A DNA stretch of 64,000 nt from positions 13,203 through 77,202 of the forward strand of contig JBDHAC010000001.1 of NCBI GenBank assembly GCA_039588275.1, read 5' to 3'. The notes under the pieces are model-generated. The model ran no database searches and was not told the origin of the DNA. It saw only the letters and a list, made by a program, of their open reading frames with translations. The stretch is from Gemmatimonadota bacterium. Its GTDB lineage: Bacteria; Gemmatimonadota; Gemmatimonadetes; Palauibacterales; Palauibacteraceae. Made by a program: the position numbers and the translations under genes. How positions within the stretch are numbered: the stretch's first letter is position 1; each line of letters begins with the position of its first letter. Shown piece by piece: positions 2,271 to 18,853 of the stretch.

Positions 2271-3803
2271 ATGCCCGCTCCACCTTACATCATCCACACC
2301 GGCAAGGACGGGAAGCTGGTCGACATGGGCTCCGGCGATGTGCAGGACATCGTACAGGCGCTGGCCGCCAGCGGGACCGGCGTGCTTCATTTCCACGGCG
2401 GGCTGGTCAACCGGAACAAGGGGATCGCGCTCGCCGAGCGGCTCGATCCCGTCTATCGCCAGGCTCAGGCCGAGCCGGTGTTCTTCGTGTGGGAGTCCGG
2501 CTTCCTCGAGACCGTGACCCACAACCTGCACGAGATCGAGACGGAGAAGATCTTCCGGATCCTGCTGAAGAGGGTCCTGAAACACGTGGTGGGCAAGCTC
2601 ACCGCGGACGCCGGGCAAAAAGCCGCCGGTCAACTCCCCTACCCGAAAGATCCCGAGCTCGCGATCGAGCTCGACAAGCTGGAGGAGGGGACCGAGCCGT
2701 ATGTGGACCTGGAGGTTCCCGGCGACGTCGACGACACGACGGACCAGGAGCGTGAGAAGCTCGAGACCGAGCTGCGGCGCGACAACGACTTTCAGGCGGA
2801 GGCGCGCGCGATCGCGCGAGAGGCCTTGCCCGCGGTAGCCGAGGAGCTCGACGGCTCGAAGGGAGTCGTGGCCACGGGTAGAAAATCGGCGAAATCCCTC
2901 ATGTCGCGGGATGTCGTCGAGGAGCTCGAGGCCGACACCGAACAAGGCCAGAAAGGGCTGCTCACGACCGCCAAGCTCATCGCTCGGGCCGGCAAGATAC
3001 TCCTGAGGGTGATCCGGCGGCTGCGTACGGGCCGCGGGCACGGGGTCTACGTGACGACCGTCGAGGAGATCCTGCGCGAGCTGTACATCGCGAACATCGG
3101 CGGCGGCATCTGGCACATGATGAAGAAGGAAACCGCCGACACGTTCAGCGTCGGGGTGGACCGCGGCGGCCGCGTGTTCGTCGACGAGCTGGGAACCGCG
3201 CTCGCACAGGCGCAGCCCTCGTGGCCCGCGATCGACCTCGTCGGGCACAGCACGGGCGCCGTATACATCCTCAATCTCCTGAAGCACGTCGAGACATGCC
3301 GCGCCCATCACCTGTTCCCGGAAGACTTCTCGTTCCGAAGCGTCGTCTTTCTCGCACCGGCTTGCGACTTCGACGCGTTCGAAGAGGCGCTGGACGACCT
3401 TCGCCATCTGTTTGACGGTTTCCGGCTGTTCGCCATGCGCGATGAGCTGGAGAAGAAGGACAATCTCGTTCCCGGGCTCTATCCACGTTCCCTGCTCTAT
3501 TTCGTCTCGGGAGTGGTGGAGCGTGAGCCCGACGGGAGCACGTCGTTCGATCGCCCGATCCTCGGGATGGAGCGATACTTCCTCGATGCGGAGGTGTACG
3601 ATCAGATCGAGGTCGAGAAAGCTCGCCAGTTCCTCGCCGCGTCCGACCGTCACGCCGTCTGGTCGATAGCGGCCGATGGCGCCGATGGACTCCGGTCGAA
3701 TTCGAACAGGCACGGGGGCTTCGACGACACGGACCCGCAGGATCCCGCCAGGCACACCACGATGCTGAGCGTACAACACATGATCCGCCACGGGCCCGCA
3801 TGA
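2271..3803 (+). CDS. Alpha/beta hydrolase (DUF900-like esterase/lipase fold) with a ~200-aa charged helical insertion
   Basis: ORF of 510 aa. Motifs are VLHFHGGLV (HGG oxyanion-type), FFVWESG (compare the FSWPS block of DUF900), the nucleophile elbow DLVGHSTGAVY (Ser ~327 by my count, nt ~3249), VVFLAPACDFDAF (compare the APDxD block) and a late RHGGFDD His. About 240 aa of E/K/D/R-rich sequence separate the WESG block from the GHSTG elbow, roughly 200 aa more than I recall for DUF900. Confidence 0.75.
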   Translation: MPAPPYIIHTGKDGKLVDMGSGDVQDIVQALAASGTGVLHFHGGLVNRNKGIALAERLDPVYRQAQAEPVFFVWESGFLETVTHNLHEIETEKIFRILLKRVLKHVVGKLTADAGQKAAGQLPYPKDPELAIELDKLEEGTEPYVDLEVPGDVDDTTDQEREKLETELRRDNDFQAEARAIAREALPAVAEELDGSKGVVATGRKSAKSLMSRDVVEELEADTEQGQKGLLTTAKLIARAGKILLRVIRRLRTGRGHGVYVTTVEEILRELYIANIGGGIWHMMKKETADTFSVGVDRGGRVFVDELGTALAQAQPSWPAIDLVGHSTGAVYILNLLKHVETCRAHHLFPEDFSFRSVVFLAPACDFDAFEEALDDLRHLFDGFRLFAMRDELEKKDNLVPGLYPRSLLYFVSGVVEREPDGSTSFDRPILGMERYFLDAEVYDQIEVEKARQFLAASDRHAVWSIAADGADGLRSNSNRHGGFDDTDPQDPARHTTMLSVQHMIRHGPA

Positions 3804-4900
3804 ATCCGCTTCACTACGCCGTGGTCGTGGGAATCAACCACTACCCCGAGCTCGATCCGCTCGTATCGGCGGTCGGGGACGCGCAGAGATTCGCCGCCTG
3901 GCTGGAGAGCGAAGACGGCGGCGGCGTGCCGGCCGACAACATGAGACTCCTCACGGTGAGCAACGCCCAGATCCCGGCCGGCGTCGCGAGAGCGGACGCG
4001 ACGCCGAAGAAGACCGAGATCCATAACGCGCTGTACGAGCTGGCTCAAACCTGCAAGGCGCACGTCGATGAGCACCCCGCGGATTGGGAAAAGACGCGTC
4101 TGTACGTGTACGTGTCGGGGCACGGCCTGGCCCCGGTCTCGACCGAGGCCGCGCTCCTCATGGCGGATGCCGGACCCGACTGGTACGGAGAGAACTTCCC
4201 GTGCGCGAGCTTCGTGGGTTGGTACCAGGAGGCTCAGTACTTCAAGGAGCTGGTGTTCTTCGCCGACTGCTGTCGCTACTGGGTCGAGGAAGCACCGCTC
4301 GCCACGCCGCCCTGGACCAAGGTGCGCGGCAACAGCGGAAGGGTGATCCGGGTCACCGGCTACGCGACGTTCTTCGGCGATCCCGCCTACGAGCCCCCCG
4401 CCGAGGAGCTCGAGCCCGCCGACGAGCGGCGCAGCTATTTCACGAAGGCCCTGCTCGAGGGGTTGGAGGGCAAGGCGGCGGACGAGGGCTCGCGCGAGAT
4501 CGACTCCAACACGCTGGCGACGTATGTCCGAGCTCGGGTCATGGAGCTGACCCGCGGCAAGCGTTCGCCTCAGGAGCCGCAGATGGCCGCCGACCCGGCA
4601 ACTCCCATCCTGTTCGGGAAGTTGAGCGAGCCGGAGGCCGAGGAGGCGAAGAACGTGACCGTGACGATCCAGATCGTCACCCCATACGATGGTGACGTCG
4701 CGGTGCTGGACGGTTACTTCCAGCCCGTGGAGACGCGGGTCGCCTCGCCCGACCCCTGGGTCATCGAGCTTCCCGGCCCCCGAATGTATCAGGTGCATCC
4801 GCTCGAGCCCGATGGCACGGTCGATCCGGAGGCGCACAATCCTTTCACCGATGAGGGCCGCTTCAGCGTGGTTGGAGAGGACCGAAGTGTTGAGCTCTAG
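3800..4900 (+). CDS. Caspase-fold cysteine peptidase (Peptidase C14-like) with a C-terminal beta-sandwich-like tail
   Basis: ORF of 366 aa; its ATG overlaps the upstream stop (ATGA at 3800-3803). Motifs are YAVVVGINHYP..L..AVGDAQRFAAWL, YVYVSGHG (His ~108) and LVFFADCCRYW (Cys ~157/158), which together form the canonical caspase/metacaspase His-Cys dyad context. The last ~90 aa (NVTVTIQIVTPYDGDVAVLDGYF..) look beta-rich. Confidence 0.8.
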   Translation: MNPLHYAVVVGINHYPELDPLVSAVGDAQRFAAWLESEDGGGVPADNMRLLTVSNAQIPAGVARADATPKKTEIHNALYELAQTCKAHVDEHPADWEKTRLYVYVSGHGLAPVSTEAALLMADAGPDWYGENFPCASFVGWYQEAQYFKELVFFADCCRYWVEEAPLATPPWTKVRGNSGRVIRVTGYATFFGDPAYEPPAEELEPADERRSYFTKALLEGLEGKAADEGSREIDSNTLATYVRARVMELTRGKRSPQEPQMAADPATPILFGKLSEPEAEEAKNVTVTIQIVTPYDGDVAVLDGYFQPVETRVASPDPWVIELPGPRMYQVHPLEPDGTVDPEAHNPFTDEGRFSVVGEDRSVEL

Positions 4901-6488
4901 CGCTCGTGCGCGAGTCGAGCTCGCGACCCCCCAGGGGCCGCTCGAGCTGAAGCTGTACGATCACACGCATACGCTGGTTGCCAGCGGATTCGGCCAGATC
5001 GAGCGCTCGCTACGACCGGGCCTGTACCGGCTCGAGGTCCACGCGGGGTCGAGGACCGAGAAGCACTTCATCACCGTCGGACCGAGCGGGTTGGTCGACA
5101 GGGAGATCACGATCGACATGCCCTCCGCCGCGCCGATCGGCGGAACGAGCACCGTGCACGAGTTCCACGGCTACCCGGCCTCGCAATTGAGCCGCCAACC
5201 TCAGGGTGCCTTCGGATACGGGGGTCGGCTGGTGGTTTTCGTCCGGAACATGGGCGAGAACCCACAGGGCCCCGTGGATGTCGACTCCGTGTCGGTCTTC
5301 GACGCTCGAAACGCACCGCTGGGGACCGGGCTCGCGGACTTCCATCACAGCCCGGGCGAGGGATGGGCCGGCTTGAGCGTGGATGTCCAGCCCGGCGGGT
5401 ACATACTGCGCCAGACCCGGCCGCGTCGGGGACCGGGTGAGTACTCGGAGAAGACCGTCGACCAGTCGATCTGGGTGGCACAGGACTGGATAACCCTCGT
5501 CTTCGTGCCATTCCGTGACAAAGTCGGCTACCCCCAGCCCGAGTTCGCATCCGTGCACATGGCCAGGCACGAGCTCGGGTTCGATCCCTATGACCAGGAG
5601 ATGCAAGCCGCCAACGTGGCTCTGGAGATCGCCTTGTCGGGCCTGCGGGGCGGTCGCGCGAACGTGCCCCGTGATCTCGAGCAGCTCATGCTGCGGGGCA
5701 AGTTCGGGAACCCGATGCTCGGCATCGTGGGCGCGCTCGGCCTCCTGCATGCGGACAAGACCAACTGGCGGCTGTTCGACATCGTACGCCGGAACCTCAA
5801 GCGGCTCGTCCCGGAGCACCCCGACGTCCAGGCGCTGCACGTGATGGGCAAGCAGAAGCGGGAGGACGAGCGCGAATCACGCGTCCCGGCCGCGACGTGG
5901 CCGCCGATGCTGTACGCCTGCTACCGCGGGCTGATCGACCGCGATTCGGACGAAACACGCCGCCTCATCCCCGAGGGCTCGATCGCCGATCACGCCGCCT
6001 CCCGACTGCTGGCGCAGGGTCCCTGGACGCGGTGGCGCGCGATTCACGGCCCCGCCGAGGAAGCTCGGGACGAGCAATTGGACAAACGCATCAAGTCGGC
6101 GGTGGATCAGCTGCGGTCGATCGCGGCGCAAGAGGGTGAGACCGAGCTGGTGGCGCAATTGCGACATTCGTGGAATGAAGGCGTCGCCAAGCTGGATGTC
6201 AGCGTCGGCGATCGGCCACGCTCGACCCCGGCGACCGGCATCTCCGTGACCAAGGCGGCCGTCGAATCCATGACCCCGGGCACGACGGCGCCCGAGGCGG
6301 CCCCTCACGCCGAAACGCTGCGGGTCGCGAGCTACCTGGAGGGCCTCGCGGAGCAGGCGTCCAAATACAACCTGCCGATTCCCGAAGGGGCCTTCGACGT
6401 ACGCGAGATCAGTGACCAGGTCGGCTTGCCTCGAGCCACGGTGAAGCGGGCGCTCCGTGACCTCGTGGACGAGGGCCTCGAGTTCTGA
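4887..6488 (+). CDS. Hypothetical 533-aa protein: two PG-Y beta-sandwich-like modules, a helical core and a C-terminal winged-helix/HTH-like motif
   Basis: 3' part of ORF 4689..6488. GTG 4887 is preceded by GGAGAGG at 4874-4880 and overlaps the caspase gene by 14 nt. LRPGLYRLEVHAG and VQPGGYILRQT resemble carboxypeptidase-regulatory-like beta sandwiches. The C-terminus ISDQVGLPRATVKRALRDLVDEG is HTH-like. I saw no Walker A motif. Confidence 0.65.
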   Translation: MLSSSARARVELATPQGPLELKLYDHTHTLVASGFGQIERSLRPGLYRLEVHAGSRTEKHFITVGPSGLVDREITIDMPSAAPIGGTSTVHEFHGYPASQLSRQPQGAFGYGGRLVVFVRNMGENPQGPVDVDSVSVFDARNAPLGTGLADFHHSPGEGWAGLSVDVQPGGYILRQTRPRRGPGEYSEKTVDQSIWVAQDWITLVFVPFRDKVGYPQPEFASVHMARHELGFDPYDQEMQAANVALEIALSGLRGGRANVPRDLEQLMLRGKFGNPMLGIVGALGLLHADKTNWRLFDIVRRNLKRLVPEHPDVQALHVMGKQKREDERESRVPAATWPPMLYACYRGLIDRDSDETRRLIPEGSIADHAASRLLAQGPWTRWRAIHGPAEEARDEQLDKRIKSAVDQLRSIAAQEGETELVAQLRHSWNEGVAKLDVSVGDRPRSTPATGISVTKAAVESMTPGTTAPEAAPHAETLRVASYLEGLAEQASKYNLPIPEGAFDVREISDQVGLPRATVKRALRDLVDEGLEF

Positions 6489-6490
6489 GC

Positions 6491-7327
6491 GTGGGGGCTT
6501 CCGCACGCCCGAGCTCGGCCCGGTCGCACCTGATGCAGCTCGTGGTCGTGGCGATCGGTCCGACCTTGACCGCGTGTTCGGCCAACCCGCAGGTGAAGAT
6601 CGCCTCGACCGAGTTCACGGCGGCCCTGGGCGAGCTGAGGACGGCGAGCCGGGACTTCCGGAGCGTCTACACGGCAGAGATCCAAAAGACACGGGACGAC
6701 CTCCAGAACGCCATCGTGGCCCGGGCGCTCCGCTTGCGTGTGGAGCAGATCTCCGAGGATCTGGATGAGCGGGACTCGGAGTTCGCCTCTCGCGGCCTCA
6801 TCTCGCTCGCCGAAGAGCTGGCGCAGACCGAAGAGGAGTACAGGAAGCTCACCGAGCTGGTAGCCAGCGTCACCCTGAGGCGCGAAGACCGTCCGGAGGG
6901 CGGCGTGGAGCGGGCCCTCGAGGCGCAGGCGGCAGCGGCGCGGACGACCGCCGAACAGCTACGGGGACTGAACCCGGCGGCCGCCGAGGAGCTCGAGAAC
7001 CGCGCCCGGGAGCTGGAGGAGAGAAGGAACCTCGACTTTCTCGAGGACGCCAGGATCGGCGCCTACATCGATGCGCTCCTCGAGCTGGGCGCCGCCGCCT
7101 CCGAGGCCGGCGCCAACCTCCGGCAGCTCGACGCGCTCATCCGCGTGCTGCAGGAGACGCACTCGGTCATCCACGCGTGGATCATGACGGACGTCAGCGT
7201 CTCCGGCGAACAGCTCGCGGATCTGTTCGAGGAGCATGCGGAGGCGCTCGGCCTGACCCTCGGCGCCGACCCCGATGACCCGTCAAGCCCCAGCGGCGAC
7301 GGCGGTGCGGAAGGCGGCCCCCGATGA
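6491..7327 (+). CDS. Coiled-coil lipoprotein, unknown function
   Basis: ORF of 278 aa with GTG 2 nt after the upstream stop. The signal has a lipobox (..VVVAIGPTLTAC|S). The remainder is long E/A/R/L-rich helical sequence with a Pro/Gly/Asp-rich C-terminal tail. Confidence 0.65.
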   Translation: MGASARPSSARSHLMQLVVVAIGPTLTACSANPQVKIASTEFTAALGELRTASRDFRSVYTAEIQKTRDDLQNAIVARALRLRVEQISEDLDERDSEFASRGLISLAEELAQTEEEYRKLTELVASVTLRREDRPEGGVERALEAQAAAARTTAEQLRGLNPAAAEELENRARELEERRNLDFLEDARIGAYIDALLELGAAASEAGANLRQLDALIRVLQETHSVIHAWIMTDVSVSGEQLADLFEEHAEALGLTLGADPDDPSSPSGDGGAEGGPR

Positions 7328-8007
7328 GACGCGCCGGGTGGCGGATTCTCCCGGTGGCGTTCGTGGCGGTCGCCGCCACGGCCTGCGCTTCGACGGCGAC
7401 GCGAGAGCTCACGGTCATGGAGCTCCAGCTGCTCGACACGCTCCAGGCCCGCATCGATACGAACGGCGACGCGCTGGATGGCGTCCTCTCGGACCTGTTG
7501 GAGATCTCGCGCGAAGCCCTCGCGGACCAGCACGCGCTGACCGCCAGCATCGCCAGGGCACAGCTGCTCGAATCGATGAGATCGCCTTGGCTGGTGCAGC
7601 GCGAAGAGGGGACGCTGGCGATCACCCAGCGCGAGGTCGCGCTCTATCACCTGTATTCGCTCCACGAGGCCCAGCGCGAGCTGCTATCGGCCAAGGTGGA
7701 GGAGCGACGCGCGGCGTTGGACGAGGTCGAGGCGGCTCACGCCCGGCTCCGATCGCTCGTCCGCGAGTTGATAAAGGCCGAGAAGGTCATTCTGGCGCAC
7801 CTCGAGCAACCCCGCGGGGCGCAGATCCGGTCTCTCCTCACCGGCCTGCTCGGCGAGGCCACGGCCTTTCGCGAAGCGCTCGCCGAATCCGACGACCCGA
7901 GGCTTCAGGAGCTGAGCGAGCGGGTAAAGAGCGCGCAGGAGCGGGTTGAGCGCGTGCAGACGTTGGTCGAACGGGCGCTTGAAGCCGCACGGTCGGGAGG
8001 GAGTTAG
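7324..8007 (+). CDS. Coiled-coil lipoprotein, unknown function
   Basis: ORF of 227 aa with an ATGA overlap on the upstream gene (7324-7327). Signal plus lipobox is MRRAGWRILPVAFVAVAATAC|A, followed by helical E/L/A/R-rich sequence. Confidence 0.65.
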   Translation: MRRAGWRILPVAFVAVAATACASTATRELTVMELQLLDTLQARIDTNGDALDGVLSDLLEISREALADQHALTASIARAQLLESMRSPWLVQREEGTLAITQREVALYHLYSLHEAQRELLSAKVEERRAALDEVEAAHARLRSLVRELIKAEKVILAHLEQPRGAQIRSLLTGLLGEATAFREALAESDDPRLQELSERVKSAQERVERVQTLVERALEAARSGGS

Positions 8008-8012
8008 AAACG

Positions 8013-8513
8013 GTGAGCCTGGAAGACTCGATCGCCAAGCTGAGGGACGTCGGATCGGACGCCAGGGGGCTGTTCGATGTCCTCAAGGACCTCGCTGACC
8101 AGGGTCGGAAGGCCCGTCAGACCGAGAAGGACAAGATCACCCGCCTCGTGAAGAAGCTGGACACGACGACCCGCACCGCCGCACGCGAGCGTCGCGCGGC
8201 CGAGATCGAGAAGCTCACGGAGCTCATCGATGCGGGGGAAACCGTCCTCTCGATCACCGGTCTGTCGTCGTCCACGCGGAACGCGGTGAAGGCGGATTTG
8301 ACTCGCCGGCGTGCCCGCCGCACGCGGCTCCGAAACCTGGACGCGACGGACTTCGGCGGGATCCTGAAAGCGGACGAAGTCAGACAGCTGGAGGACCTCG
8401 TGAAAGCGGCGAGGAAAGAGGTCGAGCAGAAGAAGCTGGCCGCCGCCTTCCTCGGGTCGGTGTTCAAGATCGGCGACCTGGCGCTCACGATGGCGGGCAA
8501 GCTCGCGATCTGA
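8013..8513 (+). CDS. Small helical protein with a hydrophobic/amphipathic C-terminal helix, unknown function
   Basis: ORF of 166 aa. GTG 8013 lies 5 nt after the upstream stop, with GGGAGGGAG ~8 nt upstream. GC3 is high in this frame. The body is K/R/E-rich and the C-terminus is ..KKLAAAFLGSVFKIGDLALTMAGKLAI. Confidence 0.6.
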   Translation: MSLEDSIAKLRDVGSDARGLFDVLKDLADQGRKARQTEKDKITRLVKKLDTTTRTAARERRAAEIEKLTELIDAGETVLSITGLSSSTRNAVKADLTRRRARRTRLRNLDATDFGGILKADEVRQLEDLVKAARKEVEQKKLAAAFLGSVFKIGDLALTMAGKLAI

Positions 8514-8567: not shown

Positions 8568-8918
8568 CTACTCCTCGGGGTCGGGCTTCTTTCGCGTCCG
8601 CTTGAGCTCCGAGCGGCGCCGCTTCTCCTCCCGCCGCCGCCGCCTCTCACCCGGCGGGACCCCGGTGGGAATCCGCGGGACTTCGGGGCGAACGAGCTCG
8701 TCGAGCGCGGCCCGCAGTCGAACGAGTGCAGCCCTCCGGTTCCGGTGCTGGCTGCGTGACTCGCGGGCGGTGACCGAGATGCCGGTGGGCAGGTGCGTCA
8801 GCCGCACGCCCGAATCCGTGGTGTTCTGGTGCTGGCCACCCGGACCACCGGACCGGAAGGTCTCCACCCGGCACTCGGCCAGGAGCGCTTCATCCCCGGC
8901 GGGAGGCTCATAGCTCAC
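8568..8918 (-). CDS. arfB: Peptidyl-tRNA hydrolase ArfB (alternative ribosome-rescue factor, RF-1 domain)
   Basis: ORF of 116 aa with a GGQ motif ([22 protein letters not shown]), [12 protein letters not shown] and a strongly basic C-terminal tail. This is the typical ArfB/YaeJ layout. Confidence 0.85.
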
Positions 8919-8950
8919 GATCAGGCACCGTCGTCGGACTCACGCACGAA

Positions 8951-9460
8951 CTACTTCGGTTTCTTGAGCGCGGCGCCGCCCCAATATCCCCACACGCCGT
9001 AAGAGACCTCATCGGGCGGCCGGACGCCGGACTGCTTGAGCGCCTGAGCGATCTGCCCCCGGTGATGGGCCTCGTGGGTCATCAGGTAAGCGAGCCAGGT
9101 AGCGGGCGACCGCTTCCACCCCTTGAGCGGCTCATCCTCTTCCACAGCCGCCCGCACGACCGCCGCCACCTTCTCGCCCGAGGCCGCCAGGGCAGCCTTC
9201 AGCCGGGCGCGATCCGGCACCTCGGAACCCGTGAAGCGGGGGAGATCAGCGGCCTCTTTCCGGTGCCGCTCGAGTCTGGAACAACGGACCTCGTGCATAT
9301 GCGCGAAGATGCGAGCGACGTTTCGCCCCTTGGAGGGCACCCCGGTCTTCAGGAGGGTCACGGCCTCGAGTCCGACTTCCGGCAACCAGTCGAGGATGAA
9401 CAGGTTGATCTCGTTGTGGATGCCCCAGGCCTCCAGGAGGTCATCCAGCACGGAGGTCAT
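8951..9460 (-). CDS. DinB-family (DinB_2-like) metal-dependent protein
   Basis: ORF of 169 aa. It has a four-helix DinB-type pattern with conserved His positions (FAHMHEV ... THEAHHRGQI). Confidence 0.7.
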   Translation of the reverse strand: MTSVLDDLLEAWGIHNEINLFILDWLPEVGLEAVTLLKTGVPSKGRNVARIFAHMHEVRCSRLERHRKEAADLPRFTGSEVPDRARLKAALAASGEKVAAVVRAAVEEDEPLKGWKRSPATWLAYLMTHEAHHRGQIAQALKQSGVRPPDEVSYGVWGYWGGAALKKPK

Positions 9461-9494
9461 GCTCGAGAGCTAATCCCGTCGACGGGAAGGAGGG

Positions 9495-11039
9495 TCAGGC
9501 TTCCTGTCGGGTCGGCTCGCCCGCCGCCTCGGCGGTGACTCGGGCGCCGCTCAACATGAGAGAGCCGGACGCCCGGATCGGCGAGGCGGCCTCGTCCAGC
9601 GCGCGCACGGCCGGGGCTGGCGCGACCCTGGGGCGCGGTCGCCGGGACCCCATGAGGATCTTGATCGTGATCGGAATCAGCACGGCCGTGGCCAGAAAGC
9701 CGGGTATGACAATGAAGTAGAGCATGAAGCCCGAGAACCCGACCAGCATGGTGCCGAACGAGAACGTATCACGCGTCCCGACCAGGTAGTGCACCGCGCG
9801 CAGGAAGCGCGTGAGGGGCCGCGGTCTCTTCGCCTCTTGATACCCGTACCGGATGGTGCGCGCGCTCCCCGAATTACCCTGCTTCGACAGGTACAACGTG
9901 ATGTTGAGCAGCCCCAGCGTGCTCGCGACCGTCGCGGCGACGCCGTTCCAGAAGAAGAAATCAGGCATCCCGGCGCGGTACACCGCTATCGTCGCACCCG
10001 CCAGGAACGCTACGTACGAGATGCTGTCGCAGACGGTGTCGATGTACTCTCCGCGCTTGCTGCTCATGAACTTGAGCCGGGCGACCTCGCCGTCTACGCC
10101 GTCCAGGATCGAGGCGAAGTGGAACAGGACGCCGCTCAACGCGAGCATGGGGTACGTCGCCCCCGTGATCGCGACCGCCGCGAGCAGGCCGACGATCAGG
10201 GTCGCGAGGCTCACCTGATTGGGCGTCATCGACGTCTTGACGACTTGGGCGGAGATCCTCGCCGAGATCGGCCGGTTCAGGCGGCTCGCGATGGGTCCGT
10301 CCTTCTCCGTCCGCAGCCCCGCGAGCAGCTTGCTCTGGGCCACCCGGGCATCCTCGGGCTCGTCGATGTCGTGCCAGAACAGGTCGCCCCCGTCTATCGC
10401 CCTCGCCCGCCCGACGGCCGCTAGTTTCTGCACGCCGTCCGACAGCGTCTCGCCGCCTTCGGCGCATGCCTCGCGAAGCGCCCCGAAGATCTCCGGAGAG
10501 GCCAGGAAGAGCCCCGTGTCGAGCCCATCGAACGGATCGAGCGACTTCCCGATCTCGACGATCCGGTCGCCGTTCAGCCGAACCTTGGTCGCCTCGGCCA
10601 GATCATGCTCCCCGTTGACGTACCGGTCGACGAGTAAATCGACGCCCTGCAGCGACCGCGCGTCGCGAGTGAGCACATCGATCGACTCGGATTCGAACAG
10701 GTGGTCGCCCATGGCGAGGATGAACGGACGATCGAGCAACGGCTCCGCCGTCAGCACGGACAGGCCGTTGGGCCGCTCCCAATCGGCGTTGTAGAGCCAG
10801 TGAACGGTGATGTTCAGCCTGTCGACGGCGTCGATCGCCGCTCGCACTTCGTCCGCCTCGTGCCCCAGGACGACGTAGGCATCGGTGATGCCGGCCGCCT
10901 CGAGCGTAAACAGGGCGCGCGCCAGCAACGGCACGCCCAGGAGCGGATACAGCGGTTTGGGCTGATCGTGGTTCAGTCGGCGGCCGCGGCCGGCCGCGAG
11001 AACGAGCGCTTGCGAGATCCCGCGCGTCTGATCGCTCAT
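9495..11039 (-). CDS. Bifunctional sugar/alcohol-phosphate nucleotidyltransferase + CDP-alcohol phosphatidyltransferase (IPCT/DIPPS-like architecture)
   Basis: ORF of 514 aa. The N-terminus has LVLAAGRGRRL...PKPL (NTP-transferase G-x-G-x-R-L loop). The C-terminal half is multi-TM with DGVDGEVARLKFMSSKRGEYIDTVCD, matching the CDP-OH-P signature D-G-x2-A-R-x8-G-x3-D-x3-D. The start overlaps the RND stop (ATGA). Confidence 0.8.
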   Translation of the reverse strand: MSDQTRGISQALVLAAGRGRRLNHDQPKPLYPLLGVPLLARALFTLEAAGITDAYVVLGHEADEVRAAIDAVDRLNITVHWLYNADWERPNGLSVLTAEPLLDRPFILAMGDHLFESESIDVLTRDARSLQGVDLLVDRYVNGEHDLAEATKVRLNGDRIVEIGKSLDPFDGLDTGLFLASPEIFGALREACAEGGETLSDGVQKLAAVGRARAIDGGDLFWHDIDEPEDARVAQSKLLAGLRTEKDGPIASRLNRPISARISAQVVKTSMTPNQVSLATLIVGLLAAVAITGATYPMLALSGVLFHFASILDGVDGEVARLKFMSSKRGEYIDTVCDSISYVAFLAGATIAVYRAGMPDFFFWNGVAATVASTLGLLNITLYLSKQGNSGSARTIRYGYQEAKRPRPLTRFLRAVHYLVGTRDTFSFGTMLVGFSGFMLYFIVIPGFLATAVLIPITIKILMGSRRPRPRVAPAPAVRALDEAASPIRASGSLMLSGARVTAEAAGEPTRQEA

Positions 11040-13552
11040 ACGATATCGCGCGAAGGAGTGGGAGGGCGCTCGACGTCGCCCGCCGCCGTGACCTCGGGTC
11101 CCGCCGCCGTGGCTTCGGGTTCCGTCGGGGTCGCGGGCGAGGCGGCGACCGCCGCAGCGGTAGCGCGATCCTCGAGGACCTGCAACGCCGCGGGGAAGAG
11201 CACCACGGCGCTGATCAGCGTGGTCGCGAGCCCCACGATCGCGAGCTTGCCGATCGAGACCAGACCGGGGTGGCTGGCGGTAAGCAGGCCGGAATAGCCC
11301 ACCATCGTCGTGAGCGTAGCCATAGTCACCGCCAACCCGGTCCTCCTCAGAACCAGGGGCAGCGATCTCGGGCCCTCGCCCAGATATCGGTGATACACGT
11401 GCACCCCGCTATCGACTCCAATGCCCACGATACTGGGCAAAACCACGAGGTTGAAAATGTTGAGCTGCAATCCGAACACCGCCATCGCCCCACCCATCCC
11501 GAGGAGCCCGATGACGAGGGGCGAGACCACCAGCGCCCCCCGTCTCAGGCTCCGAAACTGAAGCGTCACAATCAAAAGCACAACGAGGAGCGACAATCCC
11601 ACCGCCAATCGTCCCTCGCGAGTGATCATGGTCAGCATCTCGGCCATGATGATGTTCGAGCTCGCCGCATGCAGAGTCTTGCCCGAACCGATGGTGACCT
11701 CACCGATATCGCTGCTGAAGGCGATCGAGTTCCGGCCGTCCCGGAGCGGCACGCTCGGGTAGATGAGGACGAAGTCACCGATCTCGCCGTTCTTCTTCAG
11801 GAGCCGGCGCCGGTCGCTGGGCGGCACGTCCTCGATCGTGAACGGCTCCTCGACGCTCAGGTAGCTCCGCAGCTCGTTCAGCCTTCGCTCGTCCTCCCCG
11901 GACACGTTGTCCGCTTCGGCGTCGACGAGAACGCGCAGGTCCCGGATCTTCTCCAATCGCCGGGGCTGGTCATCGGGGACCGCAGCGAGGACGGAGCCGA
12001 TCCGCTCGAACGTGGGGGAGAGCGTGTCTCGATCCCGGAGGACACGAACGGAATCCATGACCTCGCGCATCTCCGCGCGAGAGTCGGTCAGGATGATCGC
12101 CGGCGACTCGGATCGATCGAAGACTCCCTCGATCCTCTCGGCGACAGCCTCCCGCTCGGGGGTGACCGAGCGGAGATTCGTGAAATCGTACTGGAACGTC
12201 ACCCGTGTGATCCCGTACGCGGCGAGCAGGATCAACAGCGCTCCGACCGCCAGGGTGCCCGGGGCGAACGCCAGCCTGGACCGCACGTGAGCTCTCTCCG
12301 CCCGCTCCGGGCGAGGCGGGATTCGCAGCAGCCCGAGATTGTCGAGGAACAGCGTCAACGCGGGCAGCACCACGACCATGCCGATGAACGCGAACAGCAT
12401 CCCCGTGCCCGCAATGAATCCGAGCTCGGAAAAGCCGCGAAAGTCCATGAGCATGAGGGAATAGAACGCCGCGGCGGTCGTGAGCGCGGTCGTCCCCAAC
12501 GCCGCGCCGGTCTTGCACACCATGTCGTGCAGCGCCTCGACGCTCGGGCGCCCTTCCTGCCTGGCCTCCCGGAAGCGGGCGAACGAGTGGATCCCGTAGT
12601 CGATCCCGAGCCCGAACAGGATGACGAACAGGAAGCCGGTGATCGTGTTGAGCTGTCCGATCACCAGGAAGGTGAGACCGAAAGTCCACATCAGCGACCC
12701 GGCCAGTGAGATCGCGATCATGAACGCGGCCGGGATGCTGCGGAAGTAGATGGCGATGACCAGGAAGACGGCCGTGACGCCGTAGACCGCCGTGCCGAGG
12801 ATGTCCCGCCTGACCCCCTCGTACTCGTCGATGCTGTTCTGGATATTGCCGCCGTACAGGATCTCGAGGGTCGCGTCGTATCGCTCGGGCCCCGCCTCGT
12901 CGATGATGCGCCCGACTTCCTCCCGCATGGCTCGATTGTACGCGAGGTTGGTGCGGCCGGCGGCGGGGTATACCAGCATCACGAGGACGGTGCTGTCCTC
13001 GTTCATGTAATACTCGCGCGGCAGGTTCTCGCGGTATCGCTCCTCCCATTCTTCCAGCTCGGAGGTCCCCGTCTCCTCCTCTTCCTCGGCATCCCCGAAC
13101 AGGTCGTCCACGACGAACGGGTTGATCTCCTGCCGCTCCGCCTCGATCGCGTCCTCGATCGCGGTATGGAGGGAGTCCAGCTGCAGGGTGTCCAGGTACA
13201 GGAGGGCGTTCTTCTCGTAGAACGCGACGTCACGCTCCAGATCGACGTCCAGCACGTAGGAGCTGGCGAGCAGCTCGGGCTCCACGGCTTTCGCGAAGCG
13301 GACGGCGGAGGGGAAATCGCGCGTGTCGAGCACGATTCGCATGTTGCCGGTGCCCCCTACCTCTTCCCTGACGCGGTCGAGCGCCCGGACGCTCTCGTAG
13401 TGGTCGGGCAAAAGCTCGGCCAGGTCGCTCTGGAGCCCCAGCTTCGAGGTGAGGTACCCGCCGACGATCGTGGCCAGGGCGGCGACGATCAGTATGGGCT
13501 TGTGATGCCGGTGGATCAGCTCACAGCCGTCCCGGAAGCGTAGGATGCGCAT
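11036..13552 (-). CDS. MMPL/RND-superfamily transporter (HpnN-like lipid exporter type)
   Basis: ORF of 838 aa. It has two blocks of ~6 TM helices, each preceded by a large soluble loop, which is a typical MMPL topology. Confidence 0.8.
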   Translation of the reverse strand: MRILRFRDGCELIHRHHKPILIVAALATIVGGYLTSKLGLQSDLAELLPDHYESVRALDRVREEVGGTGNMRIVLDTRDFPSAVRFAKAVEPELLASSYVLDVDLERDVAFYEKNALLYLDTLQLDSLHTAIEDAIEAERQEINPFVVDDLFGDAEEEEETGTSELEEWEERYRENLPREYYMNEDSTVLVMLVYPAAGRTNLAYNRAMREEVGRIIDEAGPERYDATLEILYGGNIQNSIDEYEGVRRDILGTAVYGVTAVFLVIAIYFRSIPAAFMIAISLAGSLMWTFGLTFLVIGQLNTITGFLFVILFGLGIDYGIHSFARFREARQEGRPSVEALHDMVCKTGAALGTTALTTAAAFYSLMLMDFRGFSELGFIAGTGMLFAFIGMVVVLPALTLFLDNLGLLRIPPRPERAERAHVRSRLAFAPGTLAVGALLILLAAYGITRVTFQYDFTNLRSVTPEREAVAERIEGVFDRSESPAIILTDSRAEMREVMDSVRVLRDRDTLSPTFERIGSVLAAVPDDQPRRLEKIRDLRVLVDAEADNVSGEDERRLNELRSYLSVEEPFTIEDVPPSDRRRLLKKNGEIGDFVLIYPSVPLRDGRNSIAFSSDIGEVTIGSGKTLHAASSNIIMAEMLTMITREGRLAVGLSLLVVLLIVTLQFRSLRRGALVVSPLVIGLLGMGGAMAVFGLQLNIFNLVVLPSIVGIGVDSGVHVYHRYLGEGPRSLPLVLRRTGLAVTMATLTTMVGYSGLLTASHPGLVSIGKLAIVGLATTLISAVVLFPAALQVLEDRATAAAVAASPATPTEPEATAAGPEVTAAGDVERPPTPSRDIV

Positions 13553-13565
13553 GGGCCGGCGGCTG

Positions 13566-14222
13566 CTAGGAATCTTCCTTCAGCCGGTCGACCAACTTCG
13601 CGTACATGGCTTCGTACGAGCCGCGCGAGATCTCCTTGTTGAACGAGTCGCGGTACGTGCGCACAGTGCTGGAGCCATCCACGACGACGTCGTAGGCCTT
13701 CCACTCGCCCCCGACCTCGTGCATCTCATACACGACCTCGGCCGACTTGCCATCCTTGTAGGCGAGTGTCAGCACCGTGACGCCATCATCCGAAGCCTCC
13801 GGAGGACGGTACGTTACGCTGTCCGCCCGATAGACTCCCAGCTTCTTCACCGACGAGTTTCGGATCAGCTGTCGGAACACATCGACGAAATCGGTCTTCT
13901 CCTGCTCGCTACGCGCTTCCCAGTGCCGGCTCAGGGCCCGCTGGGAAAGCTCCTGGAAGTCGATCAGATCGTTGATGACGTCCTTGAGCTGCTCTTTCGT
14001 CGGAGCGTCCACGGAATCGCCGGCGGCGTCCAGAATGCGGGTAACCGCCTGGTTCCTGGACCGCACGACGTCGACCGGCGAACCCGGGGCGGACTGTGCG
14101 TGGAGCTGGGGGGCGCCGCCCCCGAACAACACGAGCCATACGCCCATCCCCATCGCTGCCCGCCGCCCGAGACCCCTCGCCCTTGTTCCTTTCGCACACA
14201 CACTACGCTTACGTCCCATCAT
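13566..14222 (-). CDS. MlaC/Ttg2D-family periplasmic lipid-binding protein
   Basis: ORF 13566..14231; the start is ATG 14222/14219 or TTG 14231. A signal peptide is followed by INDLIDFQELSQRALSRHWEARSEQEKTDFVDVFRQLI..W..YDVVVDGSS.V..YR..F, which is the MlaC/toluene-tolerance pattern. Confidence 0.7.
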   Translation of the reverse strand: MMGRKRSVCAKGTRARGLGRRAAMGMGVWLVLFGGGAPQLHAQSAPGSPVDVVRSRNQAVTRILDAAGDSVDAPTKEQLKDVINDLIDFQELSQRALSRHWEARSEQEKTDFVDVFRQLIRNSSVKKLGVYRADSVTYRPPEASDDGVTVLTLAYKDGKSAEVVYEMHEVGGEWKAYDVVVDGSSTVRTYRDSFNKEISRGSYEAMYAKLVDRLKEDS

Positions 14223-14227
14223 CGCTC

Positions 14228-15616
14228 TCAATTCGGGTACAGGTCGCGGCCGACCGCGCGGCTCAGGTCGGCCAGCGCCGTGTTGAAGTCAAAGATGCTC
14301 TGGAGGTGCTCCCTCTCCATCTCGATCTTCGCCTGGAAGGCATCCACCAGATCCTGAATCTCGCCGATGCCCAGGTCGAACGTCTGCGACTCGGCGCGGA
14401 ACCAGTTGTCGGCCGCGGTCAACGCGCGCTCGCTGTCCTCGACGTTCGCCGCAGCCCGAACGAGCCCCAGGTACGCCTCGCGCACGTCGAGCTGGATCTT
14501 TTCGGCCAGCGGGCTCAACTGCGCGCTCAACTTCGCGGCCTCGTGCTCGGCGATCCGCACCCGATCCCGGGTCTGGAACAGGTTCACGTTCCAATCGAAG
14601 CCCAGTACGACGCCGGGCCGGAAGAAATTCGTCGGGTTGTAGACGAACGGGTTCCTCGGGTCGAAGCGGCCCGGCGCGTGATTCCACTCCACGGCACCCG
14701 CGAGAAACAGCTGCGGGTAATACTCGCTGCGTGTCGCGCGCGCGAGCGACGACTGCGCCGCGATACCTGCCCTCAGCTGCGCCAGCTCCGGTCGACCCTC
14801 CCGAGCCATGTGGAGATACCCGGCGAGGCTGTCGAGGTTGACGGCAAGGCGTGTCAGCTCCGGCGTCTCGGCGCGGATCGGAACCCCGTCCTGGATCCCT
14901 GCGGCGGCGCGCAGCGCGGCCCGGGCCATCTCCAACCCGTCGACGGCTTCCCTCCGTCCCTTTTGAGCCCGAAACCGGTAGATCTCGAACTCGAACAGGT
15001 CGTTCTGGCTGACGGAGCCGTCCTCGTACCGTTCCTGCAGCTGCACATCCGCTTCCTCTATCTCCCTCAGGACCTCGTCCGCCACGTCCACCAGCTGCTC
15101 CCCCAGCACCATCGCCCAGTACGCCTTGCGAACCTGAAGCCGGACCTCGTCGCTGGTGGCTTCGACGCCGGCGGCGGAAGCCTCTACGCCCGCCTCGGCC
15201 GCACCGACGAGCCGGTCGATCCGCCCGAACGTGTACAGCGGCTGTACCAGCTCGAGGCTGGTCTGCGTGAACCACCCCAGGTTGTTGATCGCGTCGACGC
15301 TGTCCGGAGAGACCAGCACGCCGAACTCGGTGATTTCCCCGCGAGCATCCGGTATCGGTCCCCACACGTTGCTGAGCCTGAGCTCCGGCACCCAGCGGGA
15401 ATGACGCGCCCGTGTCCGCCTCGCTTCGGCCAATTGGAGATCGACCCGGGCGCTGCTGACGAAGGGGTGGTTGTCGAGGGCGAGCGCCTCCGCCCGGGAA
15501 AGGCTCAAGACGAGCGTGTCGGCCGACTGGGCTGGCTGAACCACCTGGGCCACACCGGGCCCCACGGGCCCCGCGCATGCCAGGGTGCAGACGATCGTGA
15601 GCCGGCGGGCGATCAC
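14228..15616 (-). CDS. TolC-family outer-membrane efflux protein
   Basis: ORF of 462 aa with GTG directly after the upstream stop. It has a signal peptide and a duplicated helical/beta repeat with typical OEP-family sequence (LSLSRAEALALDNHP..., ...IGEIQDLVDAFQAKI...). Confidence 0.8.
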   Translation of the reverse strand: MIARRLTIVCTLACAGPVGPGVAQVVQPAQSADTLVLSLSRAEALALDNHPFVSSARVDLQLAEARRTRARHSRWVPELRLSNVWGPIPDARGEITEFGVLVSPDSVDAINNLGWFTQTSLELVQPLYTFGRIDRLVGAAEAGVEASAAGVEATSDEVRLQVRKAYWAMVLGEQLVDVADEVLREIEEADVQLQERYEDGSVSQNDLFEFEIYRFRAQKGRREAVDGLEMARAALRAAAGIQDGVPIRAETPELTRLAVNLDSLAGYLHMAREGRPELAQLRAGIAAQSSLARATRSEYYPQLFLAGAVEWNHAPGRFDPRNPFVYNPTNFFRPGVVLGFDWNVNLFQTRDRVRIAEHEAAKLSAQLSPLAEKIQLDVREAYLGLVRAAANVEDSERALTAADNWFRAESQTFDLGIGEIQDLVDAFQAKIEMEREHLQSIFDFNTALADLSRAVGRDLYPN

Positions 15617-16960
15617 CTATCTGCGCCTCAACGGTCTCATGCGCTCCACGACCCCGCCGGTGACGCCGGCGGGTGCGCGCTTCAACGCCTTGAAGTCGTC
15701 GTAGTCGGCGTATGCGTACGACTCCATGTCGTTCGCGTCCGACAGCACGCCGATACCGGCGGGCTTGGAGCCCGGGTTGCCGCCGAATGTTCTGCGATAC
15801 GCATCCCGGAGATCGAACACGTACGTGCGCCACTCTCCGAGGCCTTCACTCCCCGATCCAACGACGACCTGCCAGGGTCTGCCGATCCCCTCCCGTCGCG
15901 TCGCGGCTCCCACGGGAAGCGTGGCGCTCCACACGTACTTCACGGATTCCGGAATGCGGCCGAAGGCCACCTTCTTGATGGTGACGTACACTCCGGCCGC
16001 GCTGTCGACCCTCTCGTCATCCCGCTCGTCGGCCCCCTCGGGGATCCGATTGACCCGCAGTCGGAAGGAGATGTAGGGGTAATCGTCCAGGTTCCAGGCT
16101 TCCTCGAGGCCTATGATGACCGATTCGCCTTCATCGGTGGCTTCGAGGTATCGGTTGCCGCCCTCCTCGCGGATCCTATACGGCGGCTCGTCGTCGTCCT
16201 CCCTCTGGTCCCAACCGACCGGGAACCGTCCGAGAGGTGACGACTCGAAATCGTCCAGGATCAGCTCGTCGTGGTTGCCGAGCTTGGCGATCATGTAGGG
16301 GAACGAATAGTCGTCGATCAGGTCGTCGACCCGGTCTCGATACTCTCTCAGCAGCTCGTCACCATCGTATTCGATGTCGACGATCTTGCACGCCTCACCC
16401 CCGGTCTTCGCGAGCCGCAGCGTGAGCTCACGTGTTCTCCCGTTGGGGGTCTCGAGCGAGTACTCGATGGCAGACGGGTCATTCCCGTCTCCGGTGGGTG
16501 TCAGGGTGGGAACGGTCCCCCGCATCTCGTCCTCGAGAAAGGAAACGAGGCCATCCCGTAACGAGATGCGCAGCGCTGCCAGAAACCGGGTGCGCTCCGC
16601 GGAGCGCATGCCGTCCCAATCGTCGCGGAAGATCTCTTGCGCGATCACGCCGACCGCCACGGTTCGATCGATCATCTCGACGGAACGGTCGGCGAACTCG
16701 TCGGACGAGAGCTGACCGCGGCCGGCCAGGAGGCTACGCCACTCTCCGACGAGGGACCGGGCCATGCCCGGAGCGGAGTCGCACGCGTCCCAGGGGGGTT
16801 GAGCCGACAGGTCCTGCCCGAAGGCCAGACCCAACAGCAGGCCCCCGAAGAGGCTCCCGACGCCGCTCCAGCGCCTCCGAGGGCGCAACCGGGCGTCGAG
16901 CCGGCTTTTCTCTCGTATCAACCCCAAGCCATCGTCCCGGGAGGGACGCGATAAGCCCAT
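15617..16960 (-). CDS. Fusion protein: MlaC-like lipid-binding domain + DUF3047 domain
   Basis: 3' part of ORF 15617..17080. ATG 16960 has GGAGG 5 nt upstream. The N-terminal half has an MlaC-like pattern (..IAQEIFRDDWDGMRSAERTRFLAAL..KIVDIEYDGDELL..YR). The C-terminal half has DUF3047-like blocks (DSAAGVYVT, VKYVWSATLPVG, VLSDANDMESYAYADYDDF), as I recall that family. Confidence 0.65.
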   Translation of the reverse strand: MGLSRPSRDDGLGLIREKSRLDARLRPRRRWSGVGSLFGGLLLGLAFGQDLSAQPPWDACDSAPGMARSLVGEWRSLLAGRGQLSSDEFADRSVEMIDRTVAVGVIAQEIFRDDWDGMRSAERTRFLAALRISLRDGLVSFLEDEMRGTVPTLTPTGDGNDPSAIEYSLETPNGRTRELTLRLAKTGGEACKIVDIEYDGDELLREYRDRVDDLIDDYSFPYMIAKLGNHDELILDDFESSPLGRFPVGWDQREDDDEPPYRIREEGGNRYLEATDEGESVIIGLEEAWNLDDYPYISFRLRVNRIPEGADERDDERVDSAAGVYVTIKKVAFGRIPESVKYVWSATLPVGAATRREGIGRPWQVVVGSGSEGLGEWRTYVFDLRDAYRRTFGGNPGSKPAGIGVLSDANDMESYAYADYDDFKALKRAPAGVTGGVVERMRPLRRR

Positions 16961-17131
16961 ATGGTCCTCCGTCCGCCAAATCCGCGTGTCGCTGTGGAAA
17001 ACGGACCCCCGCTCGCCTCTCGGGTTCCATCCAACTCGGTCGGGCGCAAAAACATCCGAGCCATCCGTTCGGTTCCGCAAGCCACGCGCCAGCCACCCGA
17101 AGACGCACGAGCCACGCTCTCGGTCACCGCC

Positions 17132-18670: not shown

Positions 18671-18853
18671 TTCGCGGCCCGCATACTGGCGCGGGAGGGC
18701 CCGGAGAGGCAAATCAATGTTCGACCCAAGCCCGGGCTCCTCCGGCCAAGCCGGATCATGCGACCTGTTTCGGAGATCTCAATGCATCCGGCCCTGAGCC
18801 GACTTCGCAGAAAATTCACCCCGGCCGGACCGTCCGCCGCGTCCGAACCGGGC

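Follow-up and report, generated by a model that had tools for sequence, protein, structure and literature searches.

A conserved three-gene cassette encoding an alpha/beta hydrolase, a caspase-like protease and a predicted sensor or scaffold protein in a Gemmatimonadota genome and other bacterial phyla

Bacterial caspase-like proteases have been described in company with alpha/beta hydrolases. In Lysobacter capsici, LcCaspase cuts LcHydrolase, a protein of about 33 kDa, after Arg73 and Arg117 (R|G), and the cut form kills E. coli; in the LcCaspase family the sensor, WD40 or STAND, is part of the protease itself (Evans et al. 2025, bioRxiv 10.1101/2025.11.14.688446). In the VMAP/GAP1 conflict systems, caspase domains are always accompanied by a gene for an alpha/beta hydrolase (Kaur et al. 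2020, PMC7159879). A comparable arrangement was analysed here in a stretch of 64,000 nucleotides (nt) from a Gemmatimonadota bacterium (contig JBDHAC010000001.1), called the window throughout. It contains genes for an alpha/beta hydrolase (A), a caspase-like protease (B) and a third protein of no known family (C), followed by three further genes (D, E and F). The first three form a conserved cassette, which we interpret, with moderate confidence, as a 'conflict' module of protease and effector that would serve abortive infection or regulated cell death. An earlier note on this DNA had considered the pairing of such a protease with a hydrolase as undescribed. The work of Kaur et al. and Evans et al. 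shows that the pairing of a caspase with an alpha/beta-hydrolase zymogen was already known; what appears to be undescribed is that a dedicated third protein, C, takes the place of a STAND, WD40 or VMAP sensor. The logic of a proteolytic trigger, also put forward in that note, has its experimental precedent in LcCaspase and LcHydrolase.

As in the LcCaspase/LcHydrolase pair and the pairs of Kaur et al., the genes for the protease and the hydrolase are adjacent and stay together. LcHydrolase and A both possess extra sequence between the N-terminal strands and the nucleophile strand, apparently at one topological position. Conserved basic-then-small motifs are found in both proteins, R|G in LcHydrolase and [K/R]-[G/A/S] in A, and both appear lipase- or peptidase-like by remote similarity. 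Unlike the proteases of the LcCaspase and VMAP systems, B is not fused to a WD40, STAND or VMAP sensor, and no NTPase or repeat domain is present in A to F. Instead, the A-B pair has a separate conserved partner, C, with a beta-sandwich that also occurs in B. No description of the three-gene form was found in the searchable literature, and neither A nor C is covered by a PADLOC or NCBIfam model, in agreement with the initial view that no named system is matched.

The extent of the conserved unit was determined with 88 fetched loci of the A-B-C type from about 12 phyla, in which the genes were found by profile search. A, B and C are colinear in 77 of the 88 loci, and A and B are adjacent in 83. 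Only A and B were detected in six loci, mostly at contig ends or with pseudogenes, and A alone in four, while a single locus (L006) contains B and C without A, followed by an astacin-like gene. In three loci (L034, L035, L087) the gene order is B-C-A, the three genes still being together. Start-stop overlaps of 14 to 26 nt between B and C were seen repeatedly in loci of different phyla. Homologues of D, E or F were detected in none of the 88 loci, including relatives in which C is 48-57% identical. Synteny across phyla, which had been set as the key test, is strong for A+B+C and missing for D, E and F, and the conserved unit consists of three genes, not six. Because A-B-C and D-E-F each recur without the other, they are treated as separate units, and the single conserved six-gene unit proposed before was given up.

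A scan of genomes with the single sequence of B yielded no match, and the scan was then redone with an alignment of A against 185,579 species genomes (one genome per species). In total, 357 matching stretches were obtained, indicating a very patchy distribution. The carriers belong to Actinomycetota (many Streptomyces), Planctomycetota (Brocadia), Chloroflexota, Verrucomicrobiota, Gemmatimonadota, Bacteroidota (including Chlorobium), Myxococcota, Acidobacteriota, Abditibacteriota, and Pseudomonadota (Pseudomonas, Hahella, Thiocystis, rhizobial plasmids). The family of A comprises at least 1155 homologous clusters at 90% identity. Labels assigned by the Prokaryotic Genome Annotation Pipeline to A, B and C are 'alpha/beta hydrolase', 'caspase family protein' and 'hypothetical protein', respectively. 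The cassette is mobile and self-contained: it resides on a 45-kb Chondrinema plasmid with IS5 and AbiEii near, on a Mesorhizobium plasmid adjoining IS21, and on an IMG/VR contig (L098) with two tyrosine integrase genes directly 5' and DUF932, YqaJ, RDF and RadC genes 3' of it.

Genes known from conflict systems adjoin the cassette in several loci. NACHT+FGE-sulfatase proteins of about 930-1010 amino acids (aa) are encoded on both sides of A-B-C in L047 and L065 (Chloroflexota), a 930-aa CHAT-domain protein just upstream of it in L034 (Planctomycetaceae), and a Schlafen-like gene next to it in L004. The 131 immediate neighbours in 45 diverse loci were surveyed by Pfam and PADLOC scans. No neighbour family is recurrent by Pfam (at most four of the 131), PADLOC matches are scattered, and no recurrent sensor gene was found among these neighbours. 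Therefore, there is no fourth partner of the cassette.

In the window, the six co-directional open reading frames (ORFs) A to F listed in the earlier note are real. Their positions were confirmed, and all six have a coding signature, with a G+C content of 0.85-0.89 at third and 0.40-0.48 at second codon positions in a genome of 66% G+C, which distinguishes them from overlapping alternative ORFs. The tight coupling described for them was confirmed by the ORF coordinates for three junctions, the 4-nt overlaps of A and B (3800-3803) and of D and E (7324-7327) and the gap of 5 nt between E and F. The other two depend on the choice of the start codon. B and C overlap by 14 nt, as first described, if C starts with GTG at position 4887, and by 11 nt with TTG at 4890. 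The latter start is more likely, because the N-terminus MSSS of the family and the call of 532 aa by the Joint Genome Institute favour it. A Shine-Dalgarno-like sequence, GGAGAGGA, is located ahead of C at 4874-4881. The gap of 2 nt between C and D requires that D starts with GTG at 6491; with ATG at 6533, the start of the public call (264 aa), the gap is 44 nt.

Gene A (2271-3803, plus strand, as are all six genes and their parts) specifies an alpha/beta hydrolase of 510 aa, the predicted latent effector. All hallmarks of the superfamily are present, the nucleophile elbow, the oxyanion HGG, the acid and the histidine. Among 87 orthologues, HGG42-44, H326-S327-x-G329, E394 and H481 are invariant or nearly so, D391 is 94% conserved, and in the nucleophile elbow G-H-S327-T-G (3243-3257) the residues H326, S327 and G329 do not vary. 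The intact catalytic set noted before is thus confirmed, while the DUF900-like character is limited to matches below threshold (DUF900, 15.4 bits versus a cut-off of 20.5; Abhydrolase_6, 19.7 versus 26.3). Excising the insert from the sequence did not raise a Pfam match above threshold; some homologues of A carry a precomputed match to PF05990. A profile search of PDB sequences gave a single match, 1vkh, a putative serine hydrolase (E=0.0014), and single-sequence searches with A, B and C against PDB chains gave no meaningful match.

AlphaFold2 (AF2) models were made for A and C. In the model of A, which has a predicted local distance difference test (pLDDT) score of 93.5, the alpha/beta core is interrupted by an all-helical domain at residues 78-313 (2502-3209), placed after the N-terminal strands and ahead of the nucleophile strand. 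What had been taken for a charged insertion is a confidently folded helical domain of 235 aa with pLDDT values mostly above 90, in which R250, H257, G258, Y260, T262, E265, E266 and K285 are invariant. The more general proposal, a caspase-like protease coupled to a lipase-type hydrolase that is apparently regulated via an insert, is supported.

Within the insert, all three local minima of model confidence coincide with a conserved basic-then-small motif, and these positions are candidate cleavage sites as judged from the alignments and the model. At site 1, G115-x-[K/R]117-[A/G/S]118 (2613-2624), K or R is found at 117 in 83 of the 87 orthologues (95%) and a small residue next to it in 76; the confidence dip spans the block 111-120. 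Site 2, [S/A]196-[K/R]197-G198 (2856-2867), is situated in the sole poorly modelled loop, with a pLDDT of about 50 at residues 191-200, and shows K/R in 96% and G in 89% of the sequences in a 75-sequence alignment. For site 3, G226-x-[K/R]228-[G/A]229-[L/I/V]230 (2946-2960), the basic residue at 228 is conserved in 82 of 87 (94%) and G or A at 229 in 86 of 87 (99%), and the pLDDT falls to 75 in the block 221-230.

A-type cores without the 235-aa insert constitute the C-terminal part of proteins of 676-994 aa encoded on rhizobial and cyanobacterial megaplasmids (L092:4504-6534; L095:5483-7528; L096:5462-7531; L097:5819-8803), where they are fused to papain-like peptidases. The insert is therefore optional, in line with zymogen logic, and the fusions represent a second, independent coupling of an A-type core to a cysteine protease. 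The fusion of L092 has a papain-like C1 peptidase at its N-terminus, and genes of the caspase, trypsin-like and 'YEATS-associated' kinds are near. Orphan homologues of A without B or C are present in two actinomycete metagenome-assembled genomes just 5' of a GyrB/ParE-like gene (L022:7980-9473; L039:1359-2894).

Gene B (3800-4900) encodes a caspase-like (C14) cysteine protease of 366 aa. Its classification was confirmed by the match of residues 6-261 to Peptidase_C14 (PF00656; 37.4 bits versus a cut-off of 21.4, E=2.9e-9) and by the PADLOC model 'caspase' (4e-10). With NF047832, the NCBIfam model 'caspase, EACC1-associated type', B scores 46.3 bits, below the cut-off of 140. The contexts of the catalytic dyad described before are also present. 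G107-H108-G109 is at least 95% conserved among 75 orthologues; in D156-C157-C158-R159, C158 is conserved to at least 95% and C157 to 80-95% of the same orthologues. Because it is better conserved, C158 is the likelier nucleophile, not C157, which had been named at first. Apart from the caspase domain, only a beta-sandwich was detected in B. This module, at about residues 285-366 (4652-4897), contains a 'PGxxY' motif, and the C-terminal 100 residues or so are homologous to the first sandwich of C (hhalign probability 89%, E=2.2e-6). A beta-sandwich common to both proteins suggests docking via a homotypic adaptor.

Gene C (4887-6488) codes for a protein of 532 or 533 aa, depending on the start, which is predicted to be a sensor or scaffold. 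The architecture suggested by the earlier note was fully recovered by the model and Pfam. Two beta-sandwich modules, residues 8-71 and 113-227 (4908-5567), were recognised by secondary structure and by internal homology (hhalign probability 94%, E=1.9e-7). They are followed by a helical domain, residues 237-434 (5595-6188), apparent from model and alignment, and by a disordered linker (439-471) and a C-terminal winged helix-turn-helix (wHTH, 475-528), together covering 6201-6470. The AF2 model has a pLDDT of 85.7, falling below 50 in the linker. Invariant residues of the helical domain are P-M-L-G 276-279, P-D 312-313 and P-P 339-340, and H311 and M341 are at least 90% conserved. HTH_IclR, matched at 505-531 with 23.4 bits (cut-off 22), is the sole Pfam family in C, and the wHTH motif 'GLPxxxVxRAL' is kept throughout the family. 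Foldseek and profile searches against solved structures found no match to the whole protein, at most generic Ig-, prealbumin- or CnaB-like sandwiches. The H-P-D motif at 311-313 was considered as a J-domain signature and rejected, as no DnaJ match was obtained at E up to 1.

Clustered at 50% identity, the family of C numbers 2676 representatives with E up to 0.001, and for 1505 of these E is up to 1e-30. Some homologues carry C-terminal fusions, to Trypsin_2+Endonuclease_NS, to Trypsin_2+PLDc_2 or to Ig-like domains (ASH / HYDIN-type). Through the fusions to Trypsin_2 plus nuclease or PLD, C serves as a platform for protease-effector pairs of that kind, and the B-C pair of L006 with its astacin-like neighbour fits such a role. 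Examples are a 1449-aa protein with a C-family part, Trypsin_2 and a PLD-like domain (L094:10411-14760) and a 1346-aa version with Trypsin_2 and Endonuclease_NS (P0175). On a Mesorhizobium plasmid, an extended C-family gene is followed by a further gene for a trypsin-like peptidase.

From the observed linkage, the conservation of catalytic residues, the domain homology and the motif conservation we infer a scheme of complex formation, cleavage, activation and toxicity, which includes the nature of trigger and substrate. Because no N-terminal signal sequence was seen in A, B or C, the three proteins are taken as cytoplasmic. C would be a sensor or scaffold that holds B via the beta-sandwich adaptor, which occurs once at the C-terminus of B and twice at the N-terminus of C. 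A trigger sensed by the helical domain of C, by its wHTH or by both would switch B on, the likely switch being clustering. B would then cut A at the conserved [K/R]-[G/A/S] motifs in flexible loops of the helical cap, K/R117 and K/R228 being the most regular. Such a cut would excise or loosen part of the cap and unmask the active site formed by Ser327, His481 and the acid, and the activated esterase/lipase-type A could then damage the cell.

Several points weigh against this interpretation. The cuts in A presuppose a basic P1 specificity of B, which is assumed. Site 2 is irregular beyond the closest 75 sequences, in the broader set of 87. The insert of A, conserved, well packed and with invariant polar residues, could be a functional cap and not an inhibitor. 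The top Foldseek matches of A, pancreatic lipase-related protein 2, phospholipase A1 and monoglyceride lipases, are non-significant (E of at least 0.38). A and LcHydrolase are likened here by architecture and motifs; A is a protein of 510 aa with a conserved helical domain of 235 aa, and LcHydrolase has about 295 aa and an excised piece of 44 aa. Other points come from the genomic context. Neighbours of the cassette are mostly unrelated genes of the housekeeping type and an association with defence islands is weak, in Streptomyces the cassette keeps its syntenic place in 19 of 22 species, and it occurs on a single contig out of 2.9 million viral ones and is missing from all 50,697 phage genomes. 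The flanks of the window itself are a ceramidase gene on the left and envelope-lipid genes on the right. General residence in defence islands, which the earlier note had raised, is therefore not sustained.

The same contextual points speak for the best of the alternatives, a physiological module in which B matures A on an internal cue read by C, for regulated turnover of lipids or the envelope or for developmental cell death in filamentous or aggregating bacteria. The stable Streptomyces location, the housekeeping neighbours, the near absence from viral sequence, and the ceramidase, CDP-alcohol phosphatidyltransferase, MMPL and MlaC genes flanking the cassette in the window would all fit, and morphologically complex groups (Streptomyces, Chloroflexota, Myxococcota, Planctomycetota) are overrepresented among the carriers. 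Against it stand the few and scattered carriers, with 357 stretches in 185,579 species genomes, the presence of the cassette on plasmids and as integrase-adjacent cargo, the fast divergence of C with its domain swaps including nuclease and PLD fusions, and the NACHT-FGS, CHAT, Abi or Schlafen-like genes adjoining the cassette in several loci. Because patchiness, mobility, domain swaps and neighbours of this kind are typical of conflict systems, we consider a physiological module unlikely.

Another possibility is that the protease acts chiefly on C, which would be both its main substrate and its output. B would cut the linker 439-471 or a basic loop of the second sandwich, and the freed wHTH would change transcription, A acting in parallel or downstream. 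A conserved C-terminal wHTH behind a linker with pLDDT below 50, the overlap of the B and C genes, and the B-C pair kept without A in L006 are in line with this idea, and protease-to-transcription-factor relays have precedents in CalpL-CalpT-CalpS and Csx30. In addition, an imperfect inverted repeat is present in the divergent intergenic region containing the promoter region of A (2082-2154), with 33-nt arms of 76% complementarity and a perfect core of 11 nt, GAATCTTACAT/ATGTAAGATTC. By its sequence it is a possible operator of uncertain relevance, but it is absent upstream of A in 10 other loci, and the operator role was dropped. Furthermore, the sequence of the linker is not conserved, A has intact catalytic residues in nearly all loci as well as the conserved basic-small loop motifs, and the frequent fusions of C to effector-type domains fit a platform better than a released factor. 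Cleavage of C as the principal event is thus rather improbable, and activation of A through B and C is preferred.

D, E and F appear to be a lineage-specific envelope trio that is co-transcribed with the cassette in this genome. D (6491-7327) is a lineage-restricted lipoprotein of 278 aa (GTG 6491) or 264 aa (ATG 6533), E (7324-8007) is a lineage-restricted lipoprotein of 227 aa, and F (8013-8513) has 166 aa with an invariant hydrophobic stretch of 30 residues at its C-terminus. The prediction of two lipoproteins and a protein ending in a hydrophobic segment thus proved correct. In the lipoboxes L-[TPAGS]-A-C29 of D and [AG]-[TG]-A-C21 of E, Cys29 and Cys21 are invariant; the signal regions ahead of the Cys are variable and the mature N-termini conserved. 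Only five homologues of D were found among 5.8 billion clusters, each at least 64% identical, no relatives of E in the metagenome scan, and paralogy of D and E was not detected. F was considered as an EACC1 protein, which received no support and no model match.

Two related contigs, L099:1-6861 and L100:162-4841, contain D-E-F co-directional and tightly packed without A-B-C. In both, the genes after F specify an alpha/beta hydrolase of 313 aa (HG..., SHSMG) and a TPR-S+Trypsin_2 protease; upstream in L099 are genes for a TIR protein and for a protein with MAP3K_TRAF_bd+TPR-S. L099 represents the chromosomal site of the window, its arfB / DinB / NTP_transf_3+CDP-OH_P_transf flank being syntenic to window positions 8568-11039; L100 is too short to reveal its flank. 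The short hydrolase of L099 aligns to A at the nucleophile elbow only (probability 1.4%). Beside D-E-F, one chromosomal site is thus occupied by a protease-hydrolase set of the caspase type in one case and of the trypsin type in the other, which looks like a swap of the protease-hydrolase module next to a constant trio. Either D-E-F accompanies exchangeable protease-hydrolase pairs as a 'constant' accessory, or these genes are mere neighbours in a variable locus.

The model of the earlier note, in which A to F make up a single machine for envelope attack or defence and the lipoproteins D and E as well as F are integral to it, for example as envelope sensor or as target of A and B, would agree with the tight packing, with the lack of plus-strand terminator-like sites above chance inside 2271-8513 and hence between C and D, and with the renewed packing of D-E-F with a protease and an alpha/beta hydrolase in L099 and L100, but is very unlikely, since D, E and F are missing from all 88 other loci even where C is 48-57% identical, D has just the five homologues, A, B and C have no signal peptides while D and E are exported lipoproteins, and a variable locus bordered by D-E-F would equally explain the recurrence. 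A farther-reaching speculation, to which we give little credence, is that the cassette defines a hitherto unrecognised, NTPase-free sensor class for prokaryotic caspases. C would recruit B by the homotypic sandwich adaptor and license multi-site cleavage of the capped lipase-type A, and in this lineage D-E-F would be a true 'constant component', plugging interchangeably into caspase- or trypsin-type protease-hydrolase pairs and coupling a signal from the envelope to a death protease in the cytoplasm.

With the conflict module retained as the preferred interpretation, the cassette can also be compared to more distant systems. As stated in the earlier note, no NTPase, nuclease, cyclase, TIR or gasdermin match exists in the six proteins; searches with PADLOC, Pfam and NCBIfam likewise detected no gasdermin, CRISPR-Cas, cyclase or STAND components in A to F. 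Bacterial gasdermin systems with caspase-like or CHAT proteases are alike in that a cysteine protease is found beside a latent death effector released by cleavage, but the effector there is a pore former, whereas here it would be an enzyme, and no gasdermin-like protein is present. CalpL-CalpT-CalpS and Craspase-Csx30 share the combination of a protease and a partner with a DNA-binding or regulatory module behind a flexible linker. In contrast to these, A-B-C has no CRISPR, SAVED or cyclic oligoadenylate-sensing part, B belongs to C14 and is not a Lon or TPR-CHAT protease, and C shows no similarity to sigma or anti-sigma factors.

Caspase-centred multi-gene conflict systems without NTPase are similar as well, and TIR and TPR-S proteins are encoded beside D-E-F in L099. 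They differ in that Pfam detects neither TPR nor TPR-S in A, B or C and no CATASP-like small protein is evident. The EACC1-associated caspase system was not matched, as no EACC1 model hit A, C, D, E or F. Pairs of a trypsin-like protease and a pro-nuclease (Tuck et al. 2025, PMC12799240; MBL modules of Evans 2025) are related to the cassette through the C homologues fused to Trypsin_2+Endonuclease_NS/PLD; C of the window lacks such a trypsin/nuclease fusion, and the effector pair that goes with it is A and B, each encoded by a gene of its own. A MoxR/VMAP-type locus on a Rhizobium phaseoli plasmid (L091:3212-7741) turned out to be unsuitable for comparison of hydrolases, because the neighbour is a Cys/His-rich protein of 275 aa and no hydrolase. 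The 1509-aa protein of this locus has a caspase-like C-terminus without the catalytic Cys (DAAR for DxCx).

Death effectors gated by proteases are an emerging major theme in bacterial immunity, parallel to the caspase pathways of animals. The cassette is widespread in about a dozen phyla, yet none of its proteins has a solved structure or a curated family. Without the usual NTPase or repeat sensors, A-B-C could reveal a new way to switch on a bacterial caspase, and as a compact system of three genes it offers concrete candidate cut sites and catalytic residues open to test.

Over the whole window (1-64000), zero tRNA genes and zero Rfam families at gathering score were found. To the left, within 1-2064, lie a gene for a neutral/alkaline ceramidase, cut by the start of the window, and a gene for a 348-aa protein without a Pfam match (1018-2064), divergent from A. 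Downstream of F, arfB with its RF-1 domain was confirmed, as was the ceramidase upstream. Beyond it, a run of envelope-lipid genes extends over 8951-18712 on the minus strand, specifying a DinB-family protein, an NTP_transf_3+CDP-alcohol phosphatidyltransferase, an MMPL transporter, MlaC, an OEP (TolC-like) protein, DUF3047+MlaC, and a polysaccharide flippase. The run is followed by genes for a radical SAM/SPASM protein (18758-19753) and a glycosyltransferase (20987-22030).

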